Positions 33,111-49,831 of a stretch of DNA of 64,000 nt are shown one piece after another. Origin of the DNA: Promethearchaeia archaeon (GTDB lineage Archaea; Asgardarchaeota; Lokiarchaeia; Sigyniarchaeales; SOKP01). The position numbers and the translations under genes are program-made. Positions within the stretch are counted from its first letter, which is position 1. The number at the start of each line of letters is the position of its first letter. The notes under the pieces are model-generated. The model was not told where the DNA came from, did not search any database, and saw only the letters and a program-made list of their open reading frames with translations. Location of the stretch: positions 32,001 through 96,000 of the forward strand of contig JAHQWJ010000062.1 in assembly GCA_029856125.1 (NCBI GenBank), read 5' to 3'.

Positions 33111-34628
33111 TTGAGAATTATGGAAAAAGATGAAAATTTAATTTTAACAATAGATATTTCTTCCAATTCAATAAAGGTAGGATTAGTATCCGACCAATTA
33201 AAAATAAAAATCTATAACACTCAAGAATTAAAAATATATAATGAAGATTTAGATGGTTTTGCTAAACGCTTTGACATGGATGACCTTTGGAAAAAGGTTA
33301 TGATGGGAATAGATTTTGTTCTTTCCAAATCTAAAAACAAAAGGATTGTAGGTTTATCAACCTGTACTCAACGAATTGCCTCCGTTTTTCTAGACGAAAA
33401 GGGAAACGCCGTGTATGGAGGACCTAATATTGATATACGTGGTATCGATTCAGCCTATCTCATAGATGATGCGTTTTCAGAAATTGATTTATTTGAGATA
33501 ACGGGACATAGTCCGTCTCTGCTATTTTGTCTAGCAAGATTATTGTGGTTTAAAGAAGAAGCGGAAGAAGTTTATGCAAAAATTAAAAAAGTATTGACAT
33601 TAGATGATTGGTTAGTCTACAAACTTACCGGAAATTTTTATTCTGATCTATCCTCTGCAGCTGAGTCCCAATTACTGGATATTAAAAAAGGAGAATGGAG
33701 TTCTGAAATAATAGACACTTTTAATTTTGATCCCGATTTTTTTCCAGATATTGTTGATTCAGGAACTATTGTGGGCGAATTAAAAGAAAGTTTAAACAAA
33801 AGATTCGATATTGACCTTAAAAGTATTCCCTTTGTCAAGTCGGGCGGAGATACGCAAGCAACTTTATTAGGTATGGGTGTAATCGAAGAAGGTGATATAG
33901 GCATTAGTTTAGGTACTACATCACCACTTCATCTCGTTGTAAATAAACCCATTTTTGATCCTAATTGTAATTTCTGGACCACATGCCATTCGATAAAAGG
34001 AAAATGGTTAATTGAAAGCAATGCGGGCAACACGGGTGCTTCCTACAATTGGTTTAAAGAAGCATTTTTATCAAGTTTTACTGACAATCCAGATTCTTTA
34101 ATAGAGGATTTTCTAAAAAGAACAACACCAGGAGCTTTTTCGACTTACACCTACTTGGGCCCTGAAAAGATGAACATTAAAAATACTACTTCTATTAGAA
34201 GAGGGGCTTTTGTTTTTCAACCACCTATTATGGTGTCTGAGGATGTTCCCAAAATTGAAAATTTTGCCCGGAGCGTTCTTGAAAACATAGCATTCGGGAT
34301 ATTTGAAAATCATCAAGTGCTGCGCAATCAAACTGACCTTAGCACAAAAACTTATGTTGCAGGTGGGATGGCTAAATCTAATGAGTTTTGCAAATTGTTA
34401 GCTAATATATTAGATAGCCAAATTTCTGTCGCCTGTATTAGAGATTCAGCATTTGTTGGTGCTGCAATAAATACACTAATAGGTTTAAAGTACTATTCCA
34501 ATTACAAATCTATTATTAATAATCTATTAACATTTGAAGATATAAAAAACGATCCTGGTGTCTCTGATAAATTCAAAACAATTTATCTCGAATGGAAAAA
34601 CCTAAAATCAAAAATTGATAGTTTATGA
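33111..34628 (+). CDS. FGGY-family carbohydrate kinase (LsrK/XylB-like)
   Basis: CTQR, NIDIRG, ARLLWFKE, DWLVYKLTG, GGDTQ, AGGMAKS. Confidence 0.85.
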   Translation: MRIMEKDENLILTIDISSNSIKVGLVSDQLKIKIYNTQELKIYNEDLDGFAKRFDMDDLWKKVMMGIDFVLSKSKNKRIVGLSTCTQRIASVFLDEKGNAVYGGPNIDIRGIDSAYLIDDAFSEIDLFEITGHSPSLLFCLARLLWFKEEAEEVYAKIKKVLTLDDWLVYKLTGNFYSDLSSAAESQLLDIKKGEWSSEIIDTFNFDPDFFPDIVDSGTIVGELKESLNKRFDIDLKSIPFVKSGGDTQATLLGMGVIEEGDIGISLGTTSPLHLVVNKPIFDPNCNFWTTCHSIKGKWLIESNAGNTGASYNWFKEAFLSSFTDNPDSLIEDFLKRTTPGAFSTYTYLGPEKMNIKNTTSIRRGAFVFQPPIMVSEDVPKIENFARSVLENIAFGIFENHQVLRNQTDLSTKTYVAGGMAKSNEFCKLLANILDSQISVACIRDSAFVGAAINTLIGLKYYSNYKSIINNLLTFEDIKNDPGVSDKFKTIYLEWKNLKSKIDSL

Positions 34629-34730
34629 TTTATTCTGGTTATTAATTTTAATATTTTTATAAACGATAGTAAATTACTAACTTTAAAATTATTATTAAAA
34701 CTTGTTTTCGTATTTTAAGGGTGAATAAAA

Positions 34731-35081
34731 TTGTCAAATTTTGAAAATTTTGAGTCTTGTTTAAAGGAAATTGAAAATCGTTATATTACTACAGAAAAAG
34801 TAAGAAAGAAATTAGCAAACTATAACGACCCTATACAAATTTCATTTTTAGATACGAATCGTACCGTCATGATCTACGTTAATAAGGATCAAGGAATAGA
34901 GGTAAAAGATAACGCTAGCGATGAAACTGCTACAGTTAAAATCGAGTTTACTTCAGAAAAGATATTATTGGAACTTTTTAACAAAGAGCTTGGAGCGGTG
35001 AAAGCGTATTCTTCAGGAAAAATAAAGGTCATTGAAGGAAACATTAGAAATTTAATGAAACTGAAGAGCTTGATGTTTTAG
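34731..35081 (+). CDS. SCP2 sterol/lipid-binding domain protein
   Basis: 116 aa with KAYSSGKIKV.EGNI..LMKL. Confidence 0.75.
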   Translation: MSNFENFESCLKEIENRYITTEKVRKKLANYNDPIQISFLDTNRTVMIYVNKDQGIEVKDNASDETATVKIEFTSEKILLELFNKELGAVKAYSSGKIKVIEGNIRNLMKLKSLMF

Positions 35082-35166
35082 CTAAATTCAGTTGTTTTAA
35101 TCATATAATCTAAATATAATTGCGTGATTATATAATCTAATACTTAAAGAATGGATAATCTTTTAG

Positions 35167-36864
35167 TTGAGTAGAGAAATTATGAAAGCATTTATAACAG
35201 CAAGTATAACTGATGATGTTTTAGAAGAATTGCAAAAGAAAATGGAAGTAACCTATGAGAGTTGGAGAGACACTGGAAATATATATTTTGACATTAAAGA
35301 GATGGTTGAAAAATTAAGGAATTACGATGTCTTCATAACTGTAGCAGATGATTTAAAAAAAGCAGAACTTTTTGAACAGACAAACTTGAAGCTGATTGCG
35401 TCTTGTCGTGGGGATCCTTTTAACATCAATTTAGACGCTGCTACAAAAAGAAATATACCTATTATTTACGCACCAAACAGGAATGTCGTTGCAGTTGCTG
35501 AATTAACTGTTGGTTTAATCATATCCATGGCAAGAAATCTTACTAAACTAGACCGATTCCTACATTCAGAAGATTTTGAAATTATTGAGTTTGAAGATTG
35601 GATTAATTGTTATAATAAATTCATGGGAAGTGAATTAGAAAGTAAAACAATAGGCATAGTTGGTTTTGGTCAAATTGGGCAAAGGGTAGCCGAACGATTA
35701 AAACCGTTTGGTGTTAAATTTCTAATATATGATCCGTATGTTTCCGAGGAAATTGTTGAAGAGTACGGGGACAAGACAGACCTTAACGTTTTAATGAAAG
35801 AATCAGATTTTATTACCTTACATGCAGTAGCAACTGATGAAAATGATAATCTTATTAACGAAGAACGGATAAAAATGATGAAAAGCTCTGGATATTTAAT
35901 AAACTTGGCTAAAGGAAGCCTAGTTGATTACGATTATTTATACGGGGCTTTAAAGAATAACGAGATCGCGGGAGCTGCTCTAGATGTATTCCCTTTAGAG
36001 CCCATTGATGAAGATAATGAGTTTTTAGAATTAGATAATGTTATAGTAATGCCCCATATTGGTGGAAATACAACTGAAGTAATTAATAGACAATCTAAAA
36101 TGCTCCTTAAGGATATTAACATTTGGTTAAATAATGGAATTCCTTCTCATGTATTGAATCCCGAAGTATTTGAAGGATATAAGGAAAAAAAGGAGATACT
36201 AGATAAACCAAGCAATAAATTTAAAGAAGAAATAGTAGAAATTTGTAAAAAGTTATTAAGCGACGGCCATGTTATTGGATCAGCGGGAAATGTAAGTATG
36301 AGAATTAAAAAGGGTGATGAAGAATTCATTTTAATCACCCCTAGTAATGTTAACTACAAAGAGATGGAACCAAAGGATATTTTAATTATTGATCTTGAGG
36401 GCAAAGTAATCGAAGGAGAAAGAAATCCCTCAGTAGAAAAACACTTACACTTAGGAATATACAAAGATCGAGAAGATGTGAATGCAATTATTCACTCTCA
36501 CGGAATGTACTCAACAATACTCAGTACTCTCAATTTGTCGTTACCTCCAATAATGGAAGAACTTGTGCCCTACTTAGGCGGAGAGGTTTTATGTTCCGAT
36601 TACGGTGAGGCTGGAAGTGAAGAATTAGCTGATAATGTAAAAGCAAGTTTAGAAGATAGAAGCGCAGTAATTCTTGCCAACCATGGGAGTTTATGTTGTG
36701 GAGGTCATTTAGAAGGAGCATATACCGTATTAAAATATTTAGAGAGAGGATCAAAAACATATTATCTTGCTAAATTAATTAAGGAGCCAAATCTTTTACC
36801 TGAAGATACTATTGATTATGAGATGGATATTTTTGAGCTTTTTAAAGAGTCAAAGAAAATCTAA
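35167..36864 (+). CDS. Fusion of D-2-hydroxyacid dehydrogenase and class II aldolase
   Basis: N-part GIVGFGQIG, DFITLH, ALDVF..EP, PHIGG; C-part AGNVS.R, ITPS, PSVEKHLH, IHSH, LANHG. Confidence 0.9.
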   Translation: MSREIMKAFITASITDDVLEELQKKMEVTYESWRDTGNIYFDIKEMVEKLRNYDVFITVADDLKKAELFEQTNLKLIASCRGDPFNINLDAATKRNIPIIYAPNRNVVAVAELTVGLIISMARNLTKLDRFLHSEDFEIIEFEDWINCYNKFMGSELESKTIGIVGFGQIGQRVAERLKPFGVKFLIYDPYVSEEIVEEYGDKTDLNVLMKESDFITLHAVATDENDNLINEERIKMMKSSGYLINLAKGSLVDYDYLYGALKNNEIAGAALDVFPLEPIDEDNEFLELDNVIVMPHIGGNTTEVINRQSKMLLKDINIWLNNGIPSHVLNPEVFEGYKEKKEILDKPSNKFKEEIVEICKKLLSDGHVIGSAGNVSMRIKKGDEEFILITPSNVNYKEMEPKDILIIDLEGKVIEGERNPSVEKHLHLGIYKDREDVNAIIHSHGMYSTILSTLNLSLPPIMEELVPYLGGEVLCSDYGEAGSEELADNVKASLEDRSAVILANHGSLCCGGHLEGAYTVLKYLERGSKTYYLAKLIKEPNLLPEDTIDYEMDIFELFKESKKI

Positions 36865-37949
36865 TTTTCTAAATAATTTATAATTGTTTTTTGAAATGTA
36901 CTTGGAGATTTTTTCAAGTTCGATAGCTTAATTCCGACTAATCTAACTTTCTTATTCATTGTAGAAAATTCGTTAGTTAATTCGGTGATAACTCGTAAAA
37001 CCTTTTTCTTATCTTGAATGTGATGAATAAAAGAATGCGCGCGAGTGAAGGTTAAATAGCCCTCAAGTCTTATTTTTAAACTTACCGTCTTATAATGGAT
37101 CTTATTTTTAATTACACTTTTATGAATTCTATTATTTATTTCTTCAAGTTTAGACAAAATTTCATTAAAATCGTCAGTGTCCTCAAAAAAGGTTCGTTCC
37201 TTACTAATAGATTTTCTATCGCCGTGAAATTCTTTTACTTCTCTAGTATCAAAACCGTTCGCAACATTCCATACCCATTCTCCGTTTTTTCCAAACAACT
37301 GAACCATTTTAGGAAGTGTAAGATTAATGATATCACCAATAGTTTTAATCCCCTTCTTGTTATAATATAATTGGGACTTTTTTCCAATTCCGGGGATTCT
37401 GGTTATATCCATAGGACTCAGGAATTTTTTAATATATTCTGGTTTTACGACCGTAACGCCATTAGGCTTATTATGATCTGAAGCGATCTTAGCAATCGAT
37501 TTAGTTGGAGCACATCCGATTGAGATTGTTATGCCTACTTTTTTTTGGACTTCGTCTTTTAATTTTTTAGCTAAATCTCTAACTTCTATAACATTTTTAC
37601 ACTTGTCTGATATGTCTAGGTATGCCTCGTCAATACTTACTTGTTGAAACATATCTGAATAGGAATTAACAATCTCCATTACTTCTTTTGAGGCTTTATG
37701 GTATTTCTCAAAATTGGGATGAAGATAGATACCGTGAGGACATCTTTTGTAAGCTTGGGATATAGGCATCGCAGAATGGAGCCCAAATTTTCGAGCTTCG
37801 TAGTTACAGGTACTGACTACACCCCTTCCTTTTCCATTTTTTGGGTCGGCCCCTATTATTATGGGATTTCCTATATATTTTGGGTTATCTCGTGCCTCAA
37901 CAGCGGCAAAAAAGCAATCTAAGTCGCAATGTAAGATAAAACGGCTCAT
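36861..37949 (-). CDS. dinB: Y-family DNA polymerase IV (DinB/Dpo4)
   Basis: HCDLDCFFAAVE, CNYEARKFG, SIDEAYLD, KPNG, IPGIG. Confidence 0.95.
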   Translation of the reverse strand: MSRFILHCDLDCFFAAVEARDNPKYIGNPIIIGADPKNGKGRGVVSTCNYEARKFGLHSAMPISQAYKRCPHGIYLHPNFEKYHKASKEVMEIVNSYSDMFQQVSIDEAYLDISDKCKNVIEVRDLAKKLKDEVQKKVGITISIGCAPTKSIAKIASDHNKPNGVTVVKPEYIKKFLSPMDITRIPGIGKKSQLYYNKKGIKTIGDIINLTLPKMVQLFGKNGEWVWNVANGFDTREVKEFHGDRKSISKERTFFEDTDDFNEILSKLEEINNRIHKSVIKNKIHYKTVSLKIRLEGYLTFTRAHSFIHHIQDKKKVLRVITELTNEFSTMNKKVRLVGIKLSNLKKSPSTFQKTIINYLEN

Positions 37950-38128
37950 TTTTAATCGTTTTTAATAAATTGTATTAATTTAGACAATGATAGTATTTCC
38001 AAATAAAATAAAAAAAGTTAGACTATGTTGAATTATTAATTTAAAAAGGTAAAATCCAATAATTCGACTCTAATGAATATCTAATTCTATGAAAATACAT
38101 TTTTAATCAATCTTTAATTTAAAATAAT

Positions 38129-38821
38129 ATGGAAACAGATAAGTTAGAACAACTTCGAAAAACGGTTGTAAGAGGAGCTCAAGAGATTTATAGTAAAGGT
38201 TTAGTTGAGGACGGTGAAGGTAATGTTAGTGTCAGGGTTAATAAAAATGAAATATTAGTTACTCCTACTTCCACGAAATATCGTCTATTAAATCCAGATT
38301 TAATTGTTCATATGGATTTAGATGGGAATGTAATCGGATCAGGAAAAATTCCCTCTACAGAAGTAAAAATGCATTTAGCAGTTTATAAAGATAGACCTAA
38401 AGTAAAATGTGTCATTCATAATCATTCTTCTTATGTTTCCATGCTTTCAATTCTCAGAAAAAACATTCCAATTATTATGGAACAACAATTAATTTTTCTT
38501 GGTGGATCAATTCAATGCACTGAGATTACAGAAGCTCATACAGATAAAATGGGAGTTAGTGCTTTAAACGCATTAGGGAGAAATAACGCTGCTATATTAG
38601 CTAATCATGGAGCTATAATATGTGGTAAATCGCTAGATCATGCAGTTCGATTTTCTGTGATCCTTGAAAAATTAGCTAAAGTGTATTGGGGAGCATTACA
38701 AATTGGAGAACCTCGAATCATCCCTCAAGAAAATCTTGAAGAACATGAAAAAATGTTCAATAGCCTATTTGCCTGCTATCCAAAAAGACTAAGAGTTAAA
38801 CAAAAAATGAGGCGGGATTGA
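38129..38821 (+). CDS. Class II aldolase/adducin-family protein (FucA-like)
   Basis: GNVSVR, PSTEVKMH, IHNHS, LANHG. Confidence 0.9.
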   Translation: METDKLEQLRKTVVRGAQEIYSKGLVEDGEGNVSVRVNKNEILVTPTSTKYRLLNPDLIVHMDLDGNVIGSGKIPSTEVKMHLAVYKDRPKVKCVIHNHSSYVSMLSILRKNIPIIMEQQLIFLGGSIQCTEITEAHTDKMGVSALNALGRNNAAILANHGAIICGKSLDHAVRFSVILEKLAKVYWGALQIGEPRIIPQENLEEHEKMFNSLFACYPKRLRVKQKMRRD

Positions 38822-39652
38822 ATGAAGTTAGGTATTAGTTCACTAGGGAACATCATGGAAAATGCGTTTAAAAACAAATTTCCTAATATTTCTAGTATGC
38901 TTTACCATTCTACAGAAGAATGCTTTAAATTTGCGGAAAAAAATGGGATTGATGTTGTAGAAATTGTTGTGGATCCACAGGATATGTTTATAGGGGAGAT
39001 GAAACAAGCGTATCTTGATCTTTTTAAATCGTATTCAATGGTAAAGCAAGTACATGGACCTTTTATAGATATTAACTTATGCTCTCACAATAAAGGAATA
39101 TCTCAAGCCTCAATAGACGCGTATTTTGAAACTGCTCAATTTTGCCAGGAATTAAAAGCCAAAATATTAACTATACATCCAGGATTGGCTAATTTTTTGT
39201 TGGAATCTCTTAGGGATTATAATAGAATCCAATTAGCTAAAGCAATTAATAGTATATTAGACATGACAAAAAATCTTGATATATCGATTTGCTTAGAAAA
39301 CATGCCTAAAAATACACATATAATGTTAAATCAAGATAATATCGAGGAAAATTTAAAGTCAATTAATAGAAAAGATTTATTCCTCACATATGATACCAGC
39401 CACTTCTATACCAATAATGGAGATGTGGATTTGCTTTGGGAAAGGTATCACAAAATTATTAAAAATGTACACCTCGTCGAAAACTTTACAACCGAGTCAG
39501 ATACTCATCCGAGCCTTGGTTCTGGGAAAGTTAACTTTAAAGGGATTTTAGAAACTATAAGAAATTATCAGTATAAAGGGGCTTTAATTATTGAGTTATC
39601 CTCTAATGAGGGTTTAGAAAACAGTATCGACTATATTCATAAGTTATTATGA
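38822..39652 (+). CDS. Sugar phosphate isomerase/epimerase (TIM barrel)
   Basis: VHGPF.DINL, IHPG, LENMP, DTSH, VHL, H...G.G.V, IIE. Confidence 0.85.
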   Translation: MKLGISSLGNIMENAFKNKFPNISSMLYHSTEECFKFAEKNGIDVVEIVVDPQDMFIGEMKQAYLDLFKSYSMVKQVHGPFIDINLCSHNKGISQASIDAYFETAQFCQELKAKILTIHPGLANFLLESLRDYNRIQLAKAINSILDMTKNLDISICLENMPKNTHIMLNQDNIEENLKSINRKDLFLTYDTSHFYTNNGDVDLLWERYHKIIKNVHLVENFTTESDTHPSLGSGKVNFKGILETIRNYQYKGALIIELSSNEGLENSIDYIHKLL

Positions 39653-40112: not shown

Positions 40113-40973
40113 TTAATCAAATCGAAGTGAATAATCTACGAATTCCGTAGGCTTTTGAGTAAGAACGCTCGTACTTATCACGTCGGGCTCTGAAATTAGA
40201 TAGTCAAAAATATTTTCTTGAGTAATGTTCCCAGAAACTTCTATAATAACTTGATTACGTAATTTCTCTTGTTTTAATAAGTTTATGGCGTCCTGTACTT
40301 TATCTGGATTCATGTTATCCAGCATAATTATATCTGCTTTGTTTTTTACGGCAATTAGGACATCGCTTACATTTTCAATCTCAATTTCTATTTTTTTTGT
40401 GAAACTAACTCGAGACTTTACGTCTTTGAGAAGTTTTACGATGTCCCCTTTATAAAATTTTAAATGAGGTGATTTTAAAAGCACCATATCGTCCAAACTA
40501 AAACGATGAGTATCTCCTCCACCCAATTCTACGGCTTTCTTTTCGAACAACCTTAACCCTGGAAGAGTTTTTCGTGTACAAGCTATTTTCACATTTTTTC
40601 CAGAATCCTCAATTATTTTTACAAATTTTCGGGTAGTTGAAGTTATTGCACTCATGTGACTCATAAGATTTAGACCTACTCGCTCACCAAGCAATATATT
40701 TCTGGATTCTCCGTCTATTTTCGCGAAGATATCACCATTATGGATTTGATCTCCATCTTCTTTGTTTCTGATAACTTTAACATTTAAGAGTTGATATAAT
40801 ATACCCAACTCTTCTAAACCAGATAAATATCCATCACTTTTTGCGATAATTGTGGCTGAGGATACAGACTCTTTGGGAATGGCGTTTGAACTAACATCGA
40901 TGAAAGAGTTGTCTTCAATTAAGAACTTTTTTAGTTTTTCTTTGATTAAAATACGATTATAACTCATTTTCAC
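40113..40973 (-). CDS. nadC: Quinolinate phosphoribosyltransferase
   Basis: GERVGLN, CTRKTLPG, HRFSL.D, IEIE, IMLDN, EVSGNI. Confidence 0.92.
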   Translation of the reverse strand: MKMSYNRILIKEKLKKFLIEDNSFIDVSSNAIPKESVSSATIIAKSDGYLSGLEELGILYQLLNVKVIRNKEDGDQIHNGDIFAKIDGESRNILLGERVGLNLMSHMSAITSTTRKFVKIIEDSGKNVKIACTRKTLPGLRLFEKKAVELGGGDTHRFSLDDMVLLKSPHLKFYKGDIVKLLKDVKSRVSFTKKIEIEIENVSDVLIAVKNKADIIMLDNMNPDKVQDAINLLKQEKLRNQVIIEVSGNITQENIFDYLISEPDVISTSVLTQKPTEFVDYSLRFD

Positions 40974-41023: not shown

Positions 41024-41710
41024 ATGCATAGCGTTGAAAAATTGTTTATTCTTAATAATGAAGTAAAACTGGAAGCTGAAGTTTTTCAGATAGAAAATGA
41101 AACACCTAGTTGCGTTGCATTAATGTGCCATCCACATCCTCAATTTCTTTGGGTTTAAATCCCAAGAAAGGGAAAGTATGGCGGGGACATGTATAATAAC
41201 GTTGTATCGGGTGTTTTCAATTCGTTCGTTAAAAAGGATATATCCTGCATACGCTTCAATTTTAGAGGGGCGGGTAATTCGACAGGGGATCATACAAGCG
41301 GTAAGGGCGAATTAAGCGATGTTAAGGCTTGTGTTGACCATTTAACGCAGAGTTTACATTTTGATAGAGTTTTTATATGCGGGTATTCCTACGGTGCAGC
41401 TATAGGGTGCTCTACTATCAATTATTCCGAAAAAATAATTGGATATTGTGCAATTTCTTTTCCTTGGGACTTTATGAGCGTCCAATATAAAGAGTTATCT
41501 CAATCGAAAAGACCAAAATTGTTCATTCAAGGGGATATGGATACAGTAGCCCCTTATGAAAATTTTATGAAACACTTTAATTATTATTCAGAGCCAAAAA
41601 AATTCAAGATTATAGAAGGGGCAGATCATTTTTATCAAAATTTTGAAGAGGTGATTAGTAGAGAAGTATTGAACTTTTATGATTCCATAGCTCAAAATCC
41701 AATTTCATAA
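41024..41710 (+). CDS. Alpha/beta hydrolase (COG2945-like) split by a candidate intron: join(41024..41142,41176..41710), 217 aa when spliced
   Basis: Exon 1 MHSVEK...VKLEAEV...LMCHPHPQ is in the same frame as exon 2 YGGDMYNNVV; RFNFRG, GYSYG, QGDMD and GADHF are intact. Confidence 0.85.
41143..41175 (+). other. Candidate 33-nt bulge-helix-bulge intron in a protein-coding gene
   Basis: Central helix UCCU 41137-41140 / GGGA 41170-41173; 3-nt bulges CA^A and AA^G; intron hairpin UUUCUU(U)GGG / CCCAAGAAA; in-frame TAA at 41156; removal restores PQYGGDM. Confidence 0.8.
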
Positions 41711-41786: not shown

Positions 41787-42185
41787 TTAAATTGTAGACA
41801 GTTTTTCCAAATCGGGAGTTGCATTTGAAACGGCCCAATCTAATAATTGATCGTAATAGGATTCAATTTCGTATGATTCGGGACTATTAGATAAAACTGC
41901 TAATATAAATTGCGTTTTTTGATCAGGCATAATAATATTTCTACATACAATATAATCTCCAATATATTTAATCTTCATACTCGATAGAAGAGACAAATTC
42001 ATTTCCTCAGAAGCTTTATATGCCGCATCGCTCAATAAGGAGCTCATGGCTGCAACAACCCGTTCATCAACATCCTCTGCTTTTTGGGAAGCTAAAACTA
42101 ATCCTGTTGAAGTAGAGAACAATGACGCTCTAAAATTTCCATTTTCATTTAATTCTTTAAGTACAAGTTCAAGTCGGCTAACCAC
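41787..42185 (-). CDS. Roadblock/LC7 (LAMTOR-like) domain protein
   Basis: LE.VL.EL...G.F.ASLFSTSTGLVLAS...DERVVAAMSS pattern; 132 aa. Confidence 0.8.
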   Translation of the reverse strand: MVSRLELVLKELNENGNFRASLFSTSTGLVLASQKAEDVDERVVAAMSSLLSDAAYKASEEMNLSLLSSMKIKYIGDYIVCRNIIMPDQKTQFILAVLSNSPESYEIESYYDQLLDWAVSNATPDLEKLSTI

Positions 42186-48460: not shown

Positions 48461-49831
48461 TTATTGTTTTTTTACAAAGGTTTTACTCTTTAATAGTCTA
48501 TCAATGTTGTAATTAAAAGCGATTGGTAGTTCCCGATCTATAAACTCTCCAGCGATATTTGTTAATAGTAGATTTTTAATTTCATTTGGATCTTGTGTTT
48601 GGCCAAGAACCCAACCAAGTTTAACGTAACCGACTTCTGGTAAAATATTCTTTCCAGGAATAACACCAAGATTTTGTAATTCTCTACCAGTGGAATATAC
48701 ATCCATTCCAACGAACCCATGTAAGGTTTGAGTGGTCATTAATATAGTAATTCCTTCTTGGATTGCTCTTTTAATAGATTCATAAATATATGTGCTAGTG
48801 TGACCAAGTCCTGTCCCTGCAAATACTATCCCTTTATAGCCATTATCGATATAAAAATCAATTAATTCACTTTCCATGCCAGGGTAAGAGTAGACTAATG
48901 CGATCTTCTTCTCAAATTTTGTCTTTAATATAATTTCTCGATTTGATCTCTTCTTATAATCTGAACTAAACATCTTAATTTTTCTGTTTTTGATCATGCC
49001 TAATGGAACTTGATCAATAGTACGGAATGCCTCTCTTACTGATGAATGCATTTTTCTGACGAGTGTACCCCTATGGATTAACCCATAATCATGTGAAGAG
49101 GATCCTAACATTGTGACCAAAACTTCCGAAATATCTGAACTTGCTACAACAGCAGCGTTGATCAAATTAAGAGCGGCATCAGAGGATGGTCGATCAGAGC
49201 TTCTTTGACTTCCTGTAATCACTACAGGAATAGACAAATTCTCAAGCATGAAAGCTAAAGCAGCACTTGTAAAGCTCATTGTGTCGGTTCCGTGTCCTAT
49301 TAATATTCCGTCGATTCCAGCATCTGCTGCGCTTTTAACCTTTTCTGCTAGTTCTTGCCAATATTCTGGTTTCATGTTTTCCGATAAAATCTCAAAAGCA
49401 GTCTCACATTCAAGGTTACATATCTCTGCTAGTTCTGGGACAGAACTAAACAATTCTCCAGGAGTGAAAGAGGGGATAACCGCACCGGTAGTATAATCTA
49501 GCCTTGATGCCACTGTTCCTCCTGTACCCAGAAGTTTGATGTTTGGTAAATTTTTATTTTTTGGGAATTTTTTTTCTGGAATTTTATAGATTGCCTCTTT
49601 TTTACCAGTTTTTTTAATCTCTATTACATCGTTTAAATTAATACCTAAATTATAATTGTTTTTTAACTTAATTTCAATAAAATTAGGAGCAGAATACTCA
49701 TTTCTAGGTAAAATTATCCCTTGTAAAGTGGTTTTTTTTGTTTTTAATTCGACGACATCCCAAATTTGAATATTATTCTTTTCTAGGTATTCTCTTGCTT
49801 TTTCTTTGTATCCTTTTAACGAATCACTCAT
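48461..49831 (-). CDS. gatD: Glu-tRNA(Gln) amidotransferase subunit D
   Basis: TGGTVASRLDY, HGTDTM, GSQRSSDRPSSD. Confidence 0.96.
   Translation of the reverse strand: MSDSLKGYKEKAREYLEKNNIQIWDVVELKTKKTTLQGIILPRNEYSAPNFIEIKLKNNYNLGINLNDVIEIKKTGKKEAIYKIPEKKFPKNKNLPNIKLLGTGGTVASRLDYTTGAVIPSFTPGELFSSVPELAEICNLECETAFEILSENMKPEYWQELAEKVKSAADAGIDGILIGHGTDTMSFTSAALAFMLENLSIPVVITGSQRSSDRPSSDAALNLINAAVVASSDISEVLVTMLGSSSHDYGLIHRGTLVRKMHSSVREAFRTIDQVPLGMIKNRKIKMFSSDYKKRSNREIILKTKFEKKIALVYSYPGMESELIDFYIDNGYKGIVFAGTGLGHTSTYIYESIKRAIQEGITILMTTQTLHGFVGMDVYSTGRELQNLGVIPGKNILPEVGYVKLGWVLGQTQDPNEIKNLLLTNIAGEFIDRELPIAFNYNIDRLLKSKTFVKKQ

Follow-up and report, generated by a model that had tools for sequence, protein, structure and literature searches.

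The window analysed here is a 64-kb stretch of the genome of a Promethearchaeia archaeon (GCA_029856125.1), a Loki-type member of the Promethearchaeota within the Asgard archaea. In it, a gene for an alpha/beta hydrolase lies between nadC and a gene for a Roadblock/LC7 protein, a layout that is retained across the family (Table 1). The HPHPxxGGxM motif of the hydrolase is interrupted by an insert of 33 nucleotides (nt; 41143-41175), in such a way that the frame opened by the ATG at 41024 reads HPHPQ, runs into an in-frame TAA (41156-41158) and then resumes as YGGDM. An earlier note on this DNA had described this frame, and on re-reading its coordinates matched base for base; the excision that it had predicted was also reproduced, giving an open reading frame (ORF) of 217 amino acids (aa) containing HPHPQYGGDM. 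From the comparisons described here we consider it highly probable that the insert is a tRNA-type intron, of the bulge-helix-bulge (BHB) kind, in a messenger RNA, and that EndA and RtcB splice it to produce a 217-aa alpha/beta serine hydrolase.

RNA geometry and the encoded protein

The central helix, the bulges, the intron hairpin and all the exon-exon pairs listed in the earlier note were re-checked one by one and are correct. The central helix pairs exon with intron over 4 bp (4/4 pairs, in all rows of the type A introns defined below), the 3-nt bulges lie on opposite strands, and cleavage of each bulge behind its second base gives the homologous exon join. The intron helix (h') has 6 contiguous pairs here and 4-11 in relatives, where the motif asks for at least 2 bp. 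The cut sites are not fixed by the protein alone, because excision at registers 41142-41145 yields in all cases an identical peptide, and it is the BHB rule that fixes them. The exon helix of a strict hBHBh' motif has at least 2 contiguous pairs beside the 3' bulge; here a single A-U pair is followed by a C.A mismatch and then by three pairs. Because the exon helix is interrupted after 1 bp the element is classed as HBh', a form counted as canonical in a preprint on Asgard tRNAs (bioRxiv 10.64898/2026.10.13.758758). In this stem the pairs 41132-34 with 41179-81 have a probability over 0.9, and the pair 41134:41179 shows covariation at the codon level. A group I or group II ribozyme core, which takes several hundred nt, is ruled out by the 33 nt of the insert, which has no Rfam match.

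The part of the gene downstream of the insert (exon 2) matches Pfam Abhydrolase_11/Hydrolase_4. The strands of exon 1 (E5-11, E14-21 and E30-35) were located in a predicted model of an intron-less orthologue, standing in for the spliced protein of this genome. This orthologue matches PDB entries 3TRD, 2I3D and 2FUK, with sequence E values of 1e-27 to 1e-14 and template-modelling (TM) scores of 0.83-0.87. The host protein thus belongs with the lid-less alpha/beta serine hydrolases 3TRD, Atu1826 (2I3D) and XC6422 (2FUK); it has HPHPxxGGxM, the GxSxG nucleophile, the Asp, the His and, as judged from the intron-less orthologue, the fold. In 3TRD and 2I3D the HPHPxxGGxM motif is unbroken. The Ser-Asp-His triad, which the note had called intact, was located in exon 2, and its motifs are present in 28-29 of 29 carriers.

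Comparison with orthologues and databases

As the earlier note had suggested, orthologues were compared. Inserts at the HPHPxxGGxM site were found in 30 of the 89 parsed copies of the family, and in 0 of 20 copies from other families. They are of two kinds. Type A, to which the insert in the window belongs, has 27 members, of which 19 measure 33 nt, 3 measure 30, 4 measure 31 and 1 measures 32; it occurs in three genera, and in the host genus 25 of 40 copies carry it. Type B was found in 3 genomes, is 30 nt long, has an unrelated sequence and is shifted downstream by one base, where it forms a separate helix and bulges. Without splicing the ORF is broken in 30/30 carriers, and excision by the EndA rule reopens the frame in every one of them, leaving ORFs of 208-225 aa in the 29 complete copies, similar to those of intron-less orthologues. 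In the genome itself the intron sequence was found only once. The intron is missing from the single-contig genomes G050 and G055, presumably those of the cultured Promethearchaeota, so that this locus would not be testable in the cultures.

The pairing is also maintained. In the 24 distinct rows of type A the central helix is 100% paired and the bulges are invariably 3 nt long. The His-Pro codons that form the helix are fixed in 30/30 carriers versus 22/59 intron-less copies. The folding z-score taken alone is -2.4, and it is the conservation among orthologues, and not folding energy, that shows a BHB signal above chance. The intron stem carries compensatory changes: both partners differ in 13 cells, where shuffling gave 2.3, and 95.8% is paired, as opposed to at most 73% after sliding. 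These figures are inflated by the relatedness of the rows, since kin are not independent.

This inflation is one of several points that weigh against splicing. The invariant pairs of the central helix give no covariation signal, and the exon helix beside the 3' bulge is interrupted, as described above. With ViennaRNA, the BHB conformer lies around 1.2 kcal/mol above a minimum free energy structure with slipped helix, and the central pairs have a probability around 0.2. The spliced-junction sequence had 0 matches in the JGI contigs, and no near-identical full-length protein is on record in the databases searched. A broader pattern applied to the JGI contigs returned 13 insert-free stretches. 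Two of them could be parsed, one as a distant gene lacking the intron and the other as a g28-like gene.

In the databases, the 24 nearest proteins have lengths of 149-179 aa, and the members of the database cluster are exon-2 products of 169-173 aa and sometimes 44-aa exon-1 peptides, which confirms the truncation by annotation pipelines that the note had anticipated. A single cluster member of 224 aa (L265, SRR18920792) was considered as a spliced product and rejected, as it is a gene call with TGA=W that reads through the intron stop. In this case BHB introns are able to mimic alternative genetic codes in gene calling. For public Asgard proteomes, the consequence would be that they contain systematically truncated proteins.

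Splicing enzymes, further inserts and proposed mobility

The genome encodes the enzymes that such an intron would use. Two EndA genes were found, one for an alpha subunit that aligns best with Aeropyrum pernix EndA alpha and has the Tyr/His/Lys triad and a KPR loop, and a second one without the catalytic His, which fits a beta subunit. Genes for RtcB and archease lie on the contig of the window, around 22 kb beyond it, adjacent and convergent (G000:C63:117866-119711). The KPR loop confers broad specificity and, by extrapolation from PMC3241643, the EndA of this genome would be able to cut relaxed motifs. The pre-mRNA of cbf5 is cut by a hetero-oligomeric EndA (PMC2738675).

In the mechanism that we propose, the transcript would fold into the bulge-helix-bulge, the two-subunit EndA would cleave both bulges 3' of the second base, and RtcB with archease would ligate the exons, so that the 217-aa hydrolase can be made; on unspliced RNA, translation would stop 5 codons into the intron. 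We infer that cleavage and ligation occur in the cell. The conserved BHB, the intact exons and the encoded enzymes give strong comparative support to the note's central proposal of an intron of EndA/RtcB type in an Asgard coding mRNA. Asgard archaea are the archaeal group closest to eukaryotes, and those of this family very probably splice messenger RNAs, to judge from these sequences.

The genome was also scanned for BHB motifs at broken ORFs, another suggestion of the note. The strictest setting beat an antisense control and the other settings did not; as the homology-free scan was mostly no better than its control, we relied on a motif-free homology census (1421 orthologues, 2.0 Mb of one relative), in which introns shared with that relative are missed. 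The census revealed four ORF-breaking inserts of 28-30 nt, in the genes for aIF2-gamma, uL11 and a histone and in uppS, where the BHB cut restores the reference peptide; in the direct scan, a uvrA-like gene gave a strict BHB (Table 1). For aIF2-gamma, uL11 and uppS a single locus each was found in this 99%-complete genome and it is the broken one, therefore the genome appears, from its sequence, to require mRNA splicing for essential proteins. In congeners, the uL11 gene (L266-L295) is interrupted by short inserts at three or more positions close together in the same motif, with two in one gene in genome G016. Three further matches stand apart from this set. A 29-nt ORF-breaking insert (G000:C125:2028-2056, minus strand) has no clear BHB at the tested registers, the joined frame of a 28-nt strict BHB (G000:C115:1188-1215, plus strand) stops 35 codons on, and a BHB-like match at 49187-49216 of the window was rejected as a false positive, antisense to a long ORF.

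The distribution of the hydrolase intron is patchy. On the hydrolase gene tree (a quick tree, family rows only), type A requires 7 changes, 5 of them forced by well-supported branches, and a single type A clade is rejected (approximately unbiased test, p 6e-6). Judged from these sequences the intron seems to be a mobile element that passes from one lineage to another. Genome G099 is the sole carrier among 26 fetched copies of its genus, and it has a 650-codon Zn-ribbon/LAGLIDADG frame between nadC and the hydrolase gene (L251:1501-3450). Compared with the intron-less G095, its flanks and exon 2 are 93-96% identical and exon 1 only 62-75%; this step falls on the splice site. The same one-sided step was detected for G021/G012 against G018/G029 and for G087/G091 against G092, so that three independent pairs of carriers and non-carriers show a replaced exon 1 beside an exon 2 of 88-96% identity, as in co-conversion tracts. 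Control pairs gave smaller drops in exon 1, because exon 1 contains a variable loop.

These steps suggest that exon 1 and the intron were converted together by recombination, in G099 presumably driven by the nuclease on a putative target, as in collaborative homing; for G092, the intron may instead have been lost in this way. The element would be a mobile micro-intron that is tolerated within a conserved motif, with repeated gain and loss, and with at least one arrival as a recombining block of exon 1, intron and free-standing LAGLIDADG gene (the one case with a nuclease). Among the 29 carriers with flanks wholly or partly in view, just 1 has the LAGLIDADG gene beside the hydrolase, and the relatives of the nuclease (L252-L262) adjoin the 3' end of nrdD and leuS, where no intron was seen; both facts argue against mobility of this kind. 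The 64-kb window itself has no free-standing endonuclease gene. In G128 a related endonuclease adjoins a broken piece of nrdD, which was considered as an intron case and rejected as a decayed duplicate. With somewhat less than even confidence, we propose a hitherto undescribed class of introns of around 30 nt, spliced by endonuclease, which actively spreads in coding genes, among them the essential aIF2-gamma, uL11 (at several sites), uppS and histone genes, and which was moved between lineages by external free-standing homing endonucleases.

Alternative explanations and related systems

The earlier note had also raised a splice-dependent expression switch, that is, a spliced intron that is kept because it links the output of the hydrolase to EndA/RtcB activity or to an alternative fold. 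This addition to splicing would agree with the BHB and slipped conformers being about 1 kcal/mol apart, and with the presence of an in-frame stop in 25/25 introns of length 3n, though the chance of one is 0.6-0.75 each; in Haloferax volcanii, moreover, the intron in the 5' untranslated region of HVO_1309 influences expression (PMC7714728). The intron was gained and lost patchily even between close relatives, adjacent bases hold two different introns, and exon-1 conversion tracts and, in one genome, an endonuclease gene accompany it. These observations leave the switch without support: a tolerated mobile element fits them better than a conserved regulator, and we regard the switch as unlikely.

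Expression without splicing, as a 44-aa peptide plus a protein of 173 aa started at an internal ATG, acting singly or as a split enzyme, is much less probable. The in-frame ATG at 41189 does lie upstream of the complete triad, and the resulting protein is the form called by pipelines, but it loses three core strands, HPHPxxGGxM stays broken and the invariant BHB is left unexplained. Furthermore, the Gly-Gly codons between the stop and this ATG are conserved as codons, with synonymous variation only, and would therefore be readable only after splicing, and in the carrier G016 the ATG is CTG. Recoding during translation, whether by readthrough, a different genetic code, a frameshift or a ribosome bypassing the hairpin, has an equally slight probability. 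An insert of length 3n with a stop and a hairpin would suit it, as would the relative called with TGA=W. Against this, the stop may be TAA, TGA or TAG and varies in position, and the insert lengths of 30, 31, 32 and 33 nt cover all three frames, with the 31- and 32-nt versions shifting the frame; the three frames and three stops exclude readthrough or another code, and the exact EndA geometry appears in two unrelated intron types.

Still less credible is a pseudogene, in which a hairpin insertion would have inactivated a dispensable hydrolase. It could account for the in-frame stop, and the gene was not found in 11/135 genomes of the family. However, the 29 complete carriers diverge to around 52% identity and show no other lesion, both exons are under purifying selection (ratio of nonsynonymous to synonymous rates 0.29 in exon 1 and 0.19 in exon 2) with the triad kept, and similar inserts occur in essential single-copy genes. 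An assembly or sequencing artefact, conceivable in a metagenome-assembled genome with 6% contamination, has a negligible probability with the insert present in 30 independent assemblies of graded divergence, and also in GenBank records.

Among the known systems closest to the spliced hydrolase intron proposed here is the crenarchaeal cbf5 intron (Watanabe 2002; Yoshinari 2006; Yokobori 2009, PMC2738675), also a short BHB intron in a conserved coding motif, cleaved by a hetero-oligomeric EndA that separates bulge bases two and three, and gained and lost across relatives. In agreement with the note, cbf5 is the established archaeal example, and the sole archaeal coding sequence with confirmed splicing in the literature searched (PMC2738675, PMC7714728); further BHB introns in coding sequences were merely predicted as of 2009 (PMC2738675). 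Splicing of cbf5 was shown experimentally, whereas that of the hydrolase intron is predicted from sequence. The hydrolase is a metabolic gene of Promethearchaeota and one of several such genes in its genome, and it has two independent introns at adjacent bases and signs of homing. The HVO_1309 intron, added in 2020, is likewise an mRNA BHB substrate of EndA (PMC7714728), but as it lies in an untranslated region it is frame-independent, whereas the hydrolase reading frame depends on splicing. For mRNA introns in Asgard archaea, no paper was found in the literature searched, a collection with few subscription papers.

The BHB introns of archaeal and Asgard tRNAs share the motif, a similar size and repeated independent gains (bioRxiv 10.64898/2026.10.13.758758). 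That preprint deals with tRNA only, in other Asgard families, leaves mRNA unmentioned and gives no general arrival route; unlike those introns, the hydrolase intron shows in one carrier a nuclease-linked block. Collaborative homing in phages (PMC3984707) is alike in its ORF-less intron, neighbouring free-standing endonuclease gene and flanking co-conversion, and unlike in that phage introns are group I, whereas here a protein-spliced 30-nt BHB intron, an archaeal chromosome and a putative nuclease target are involved. The arrival of BHB introns, left open by the 2026 tRNA study, thus becomes testable, since in one carrier the block that arrived is still present. Together with introns in essential genes, a second family whose reading frame depends on an intron would mean that mRNA splicing by EndA and RtcB is routine in these cells. 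In XBP1 and HAC1 mRNA, IRE1 splicing likewise works without a spliceosome on a short ORF-breaking intron, with a tRNA ligase (RtcB for XBP1) joining the exons. Its nuclease and RNA motif are different and it is regulated, so that the likeness is an analogy with no homology shown; XBP1/HAC1 splicing is mentioned in PMC13149111.

Table 1. Features of the hydrolase locus (positions in the window) and further inserts in the genome (contig positions)
Feature	Position	Strand	Remarks
Exon 1: ATG, three N-terminal beta-strands, HPHP half of motif	41024..41142	+	
Exon 2: YGGDM and catalytic core	41176..41710	+	Ser 41387-89, Asp 41540-42, His 41627-29
Predicted type A BHB (HBh') intron, 33 nt	41143..41175	+	geometry and orthologue conservation
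Central helix, 5' strand, exonic UCCU, 4 bp	41137..41140	+	invariant in 24/24 distinct type A rows
Central helix, 3' strand, intronic GGGA (one G-U)	41170..41173	+	invariant in type A
5' bulge CAA	41141..41143	+	predicted cut after 41142; cut rule from PMC2738675
3' bulge AAG	41174..41176	+	predicted cut after 41175
Intron hairpin (h'): 9 bp, one bulged U, 7-nt loop	41144..41169	+	-7.3 kcal/mol; compensatory changes at three pairs
In-frame TAA within intron loop	41156..41158	+	
Interrupted exon-exon stem	41123..41190	+	41123-41136 with 41177-41190
Truncated 173-aa ORF from internal ATG	41189..41710	+	form called by annotation pipelines
nadC (quinolinate phosphoribosyltransferase)	40113..40973	-	conserved divergent neighbour
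Roadblock/LC7 protein	41787..42185	-	conserved convergent neighbour
aIF2-gamma, 29-nt BHB insert (L232)	G000:C136:18999-19027	+	in GHVDHGKTT P-loop
uL11, 28-nt BHB insert (L233)	G000:C72:4371-4398	+	
uppS, 30-nt relaxed-helix BHB insert (L234)	G000:C32:16905-16934	-	in DGNRRW motif
Histone gene, 30-nt BHB insert (L235)	G000:C8:64406-64435	+	
uvrA-like gene, 31-nt strict BHB (L236)	G000:C149:3272-3302	-	in zinc motif; from direct scan

Two minor observations were made elsewhere in the genome. In two tRNA-Glu genes (G000:C84:96590-96690 and 116396-116497), the stem ends of a D-arm intron resemble those of the hydrolase intron, a post hoc pattern of low complexity. Within the window, positions 33111-39652 look by eye like a sugar-utilisation cluster, with an FGGY-type kinase, a fusion of 2-hydroxyacid dehydrogenase and class II aldolase domain (35167-36864), a second aldolase and a sugar isomerase, and with dinB on the opposite strand.
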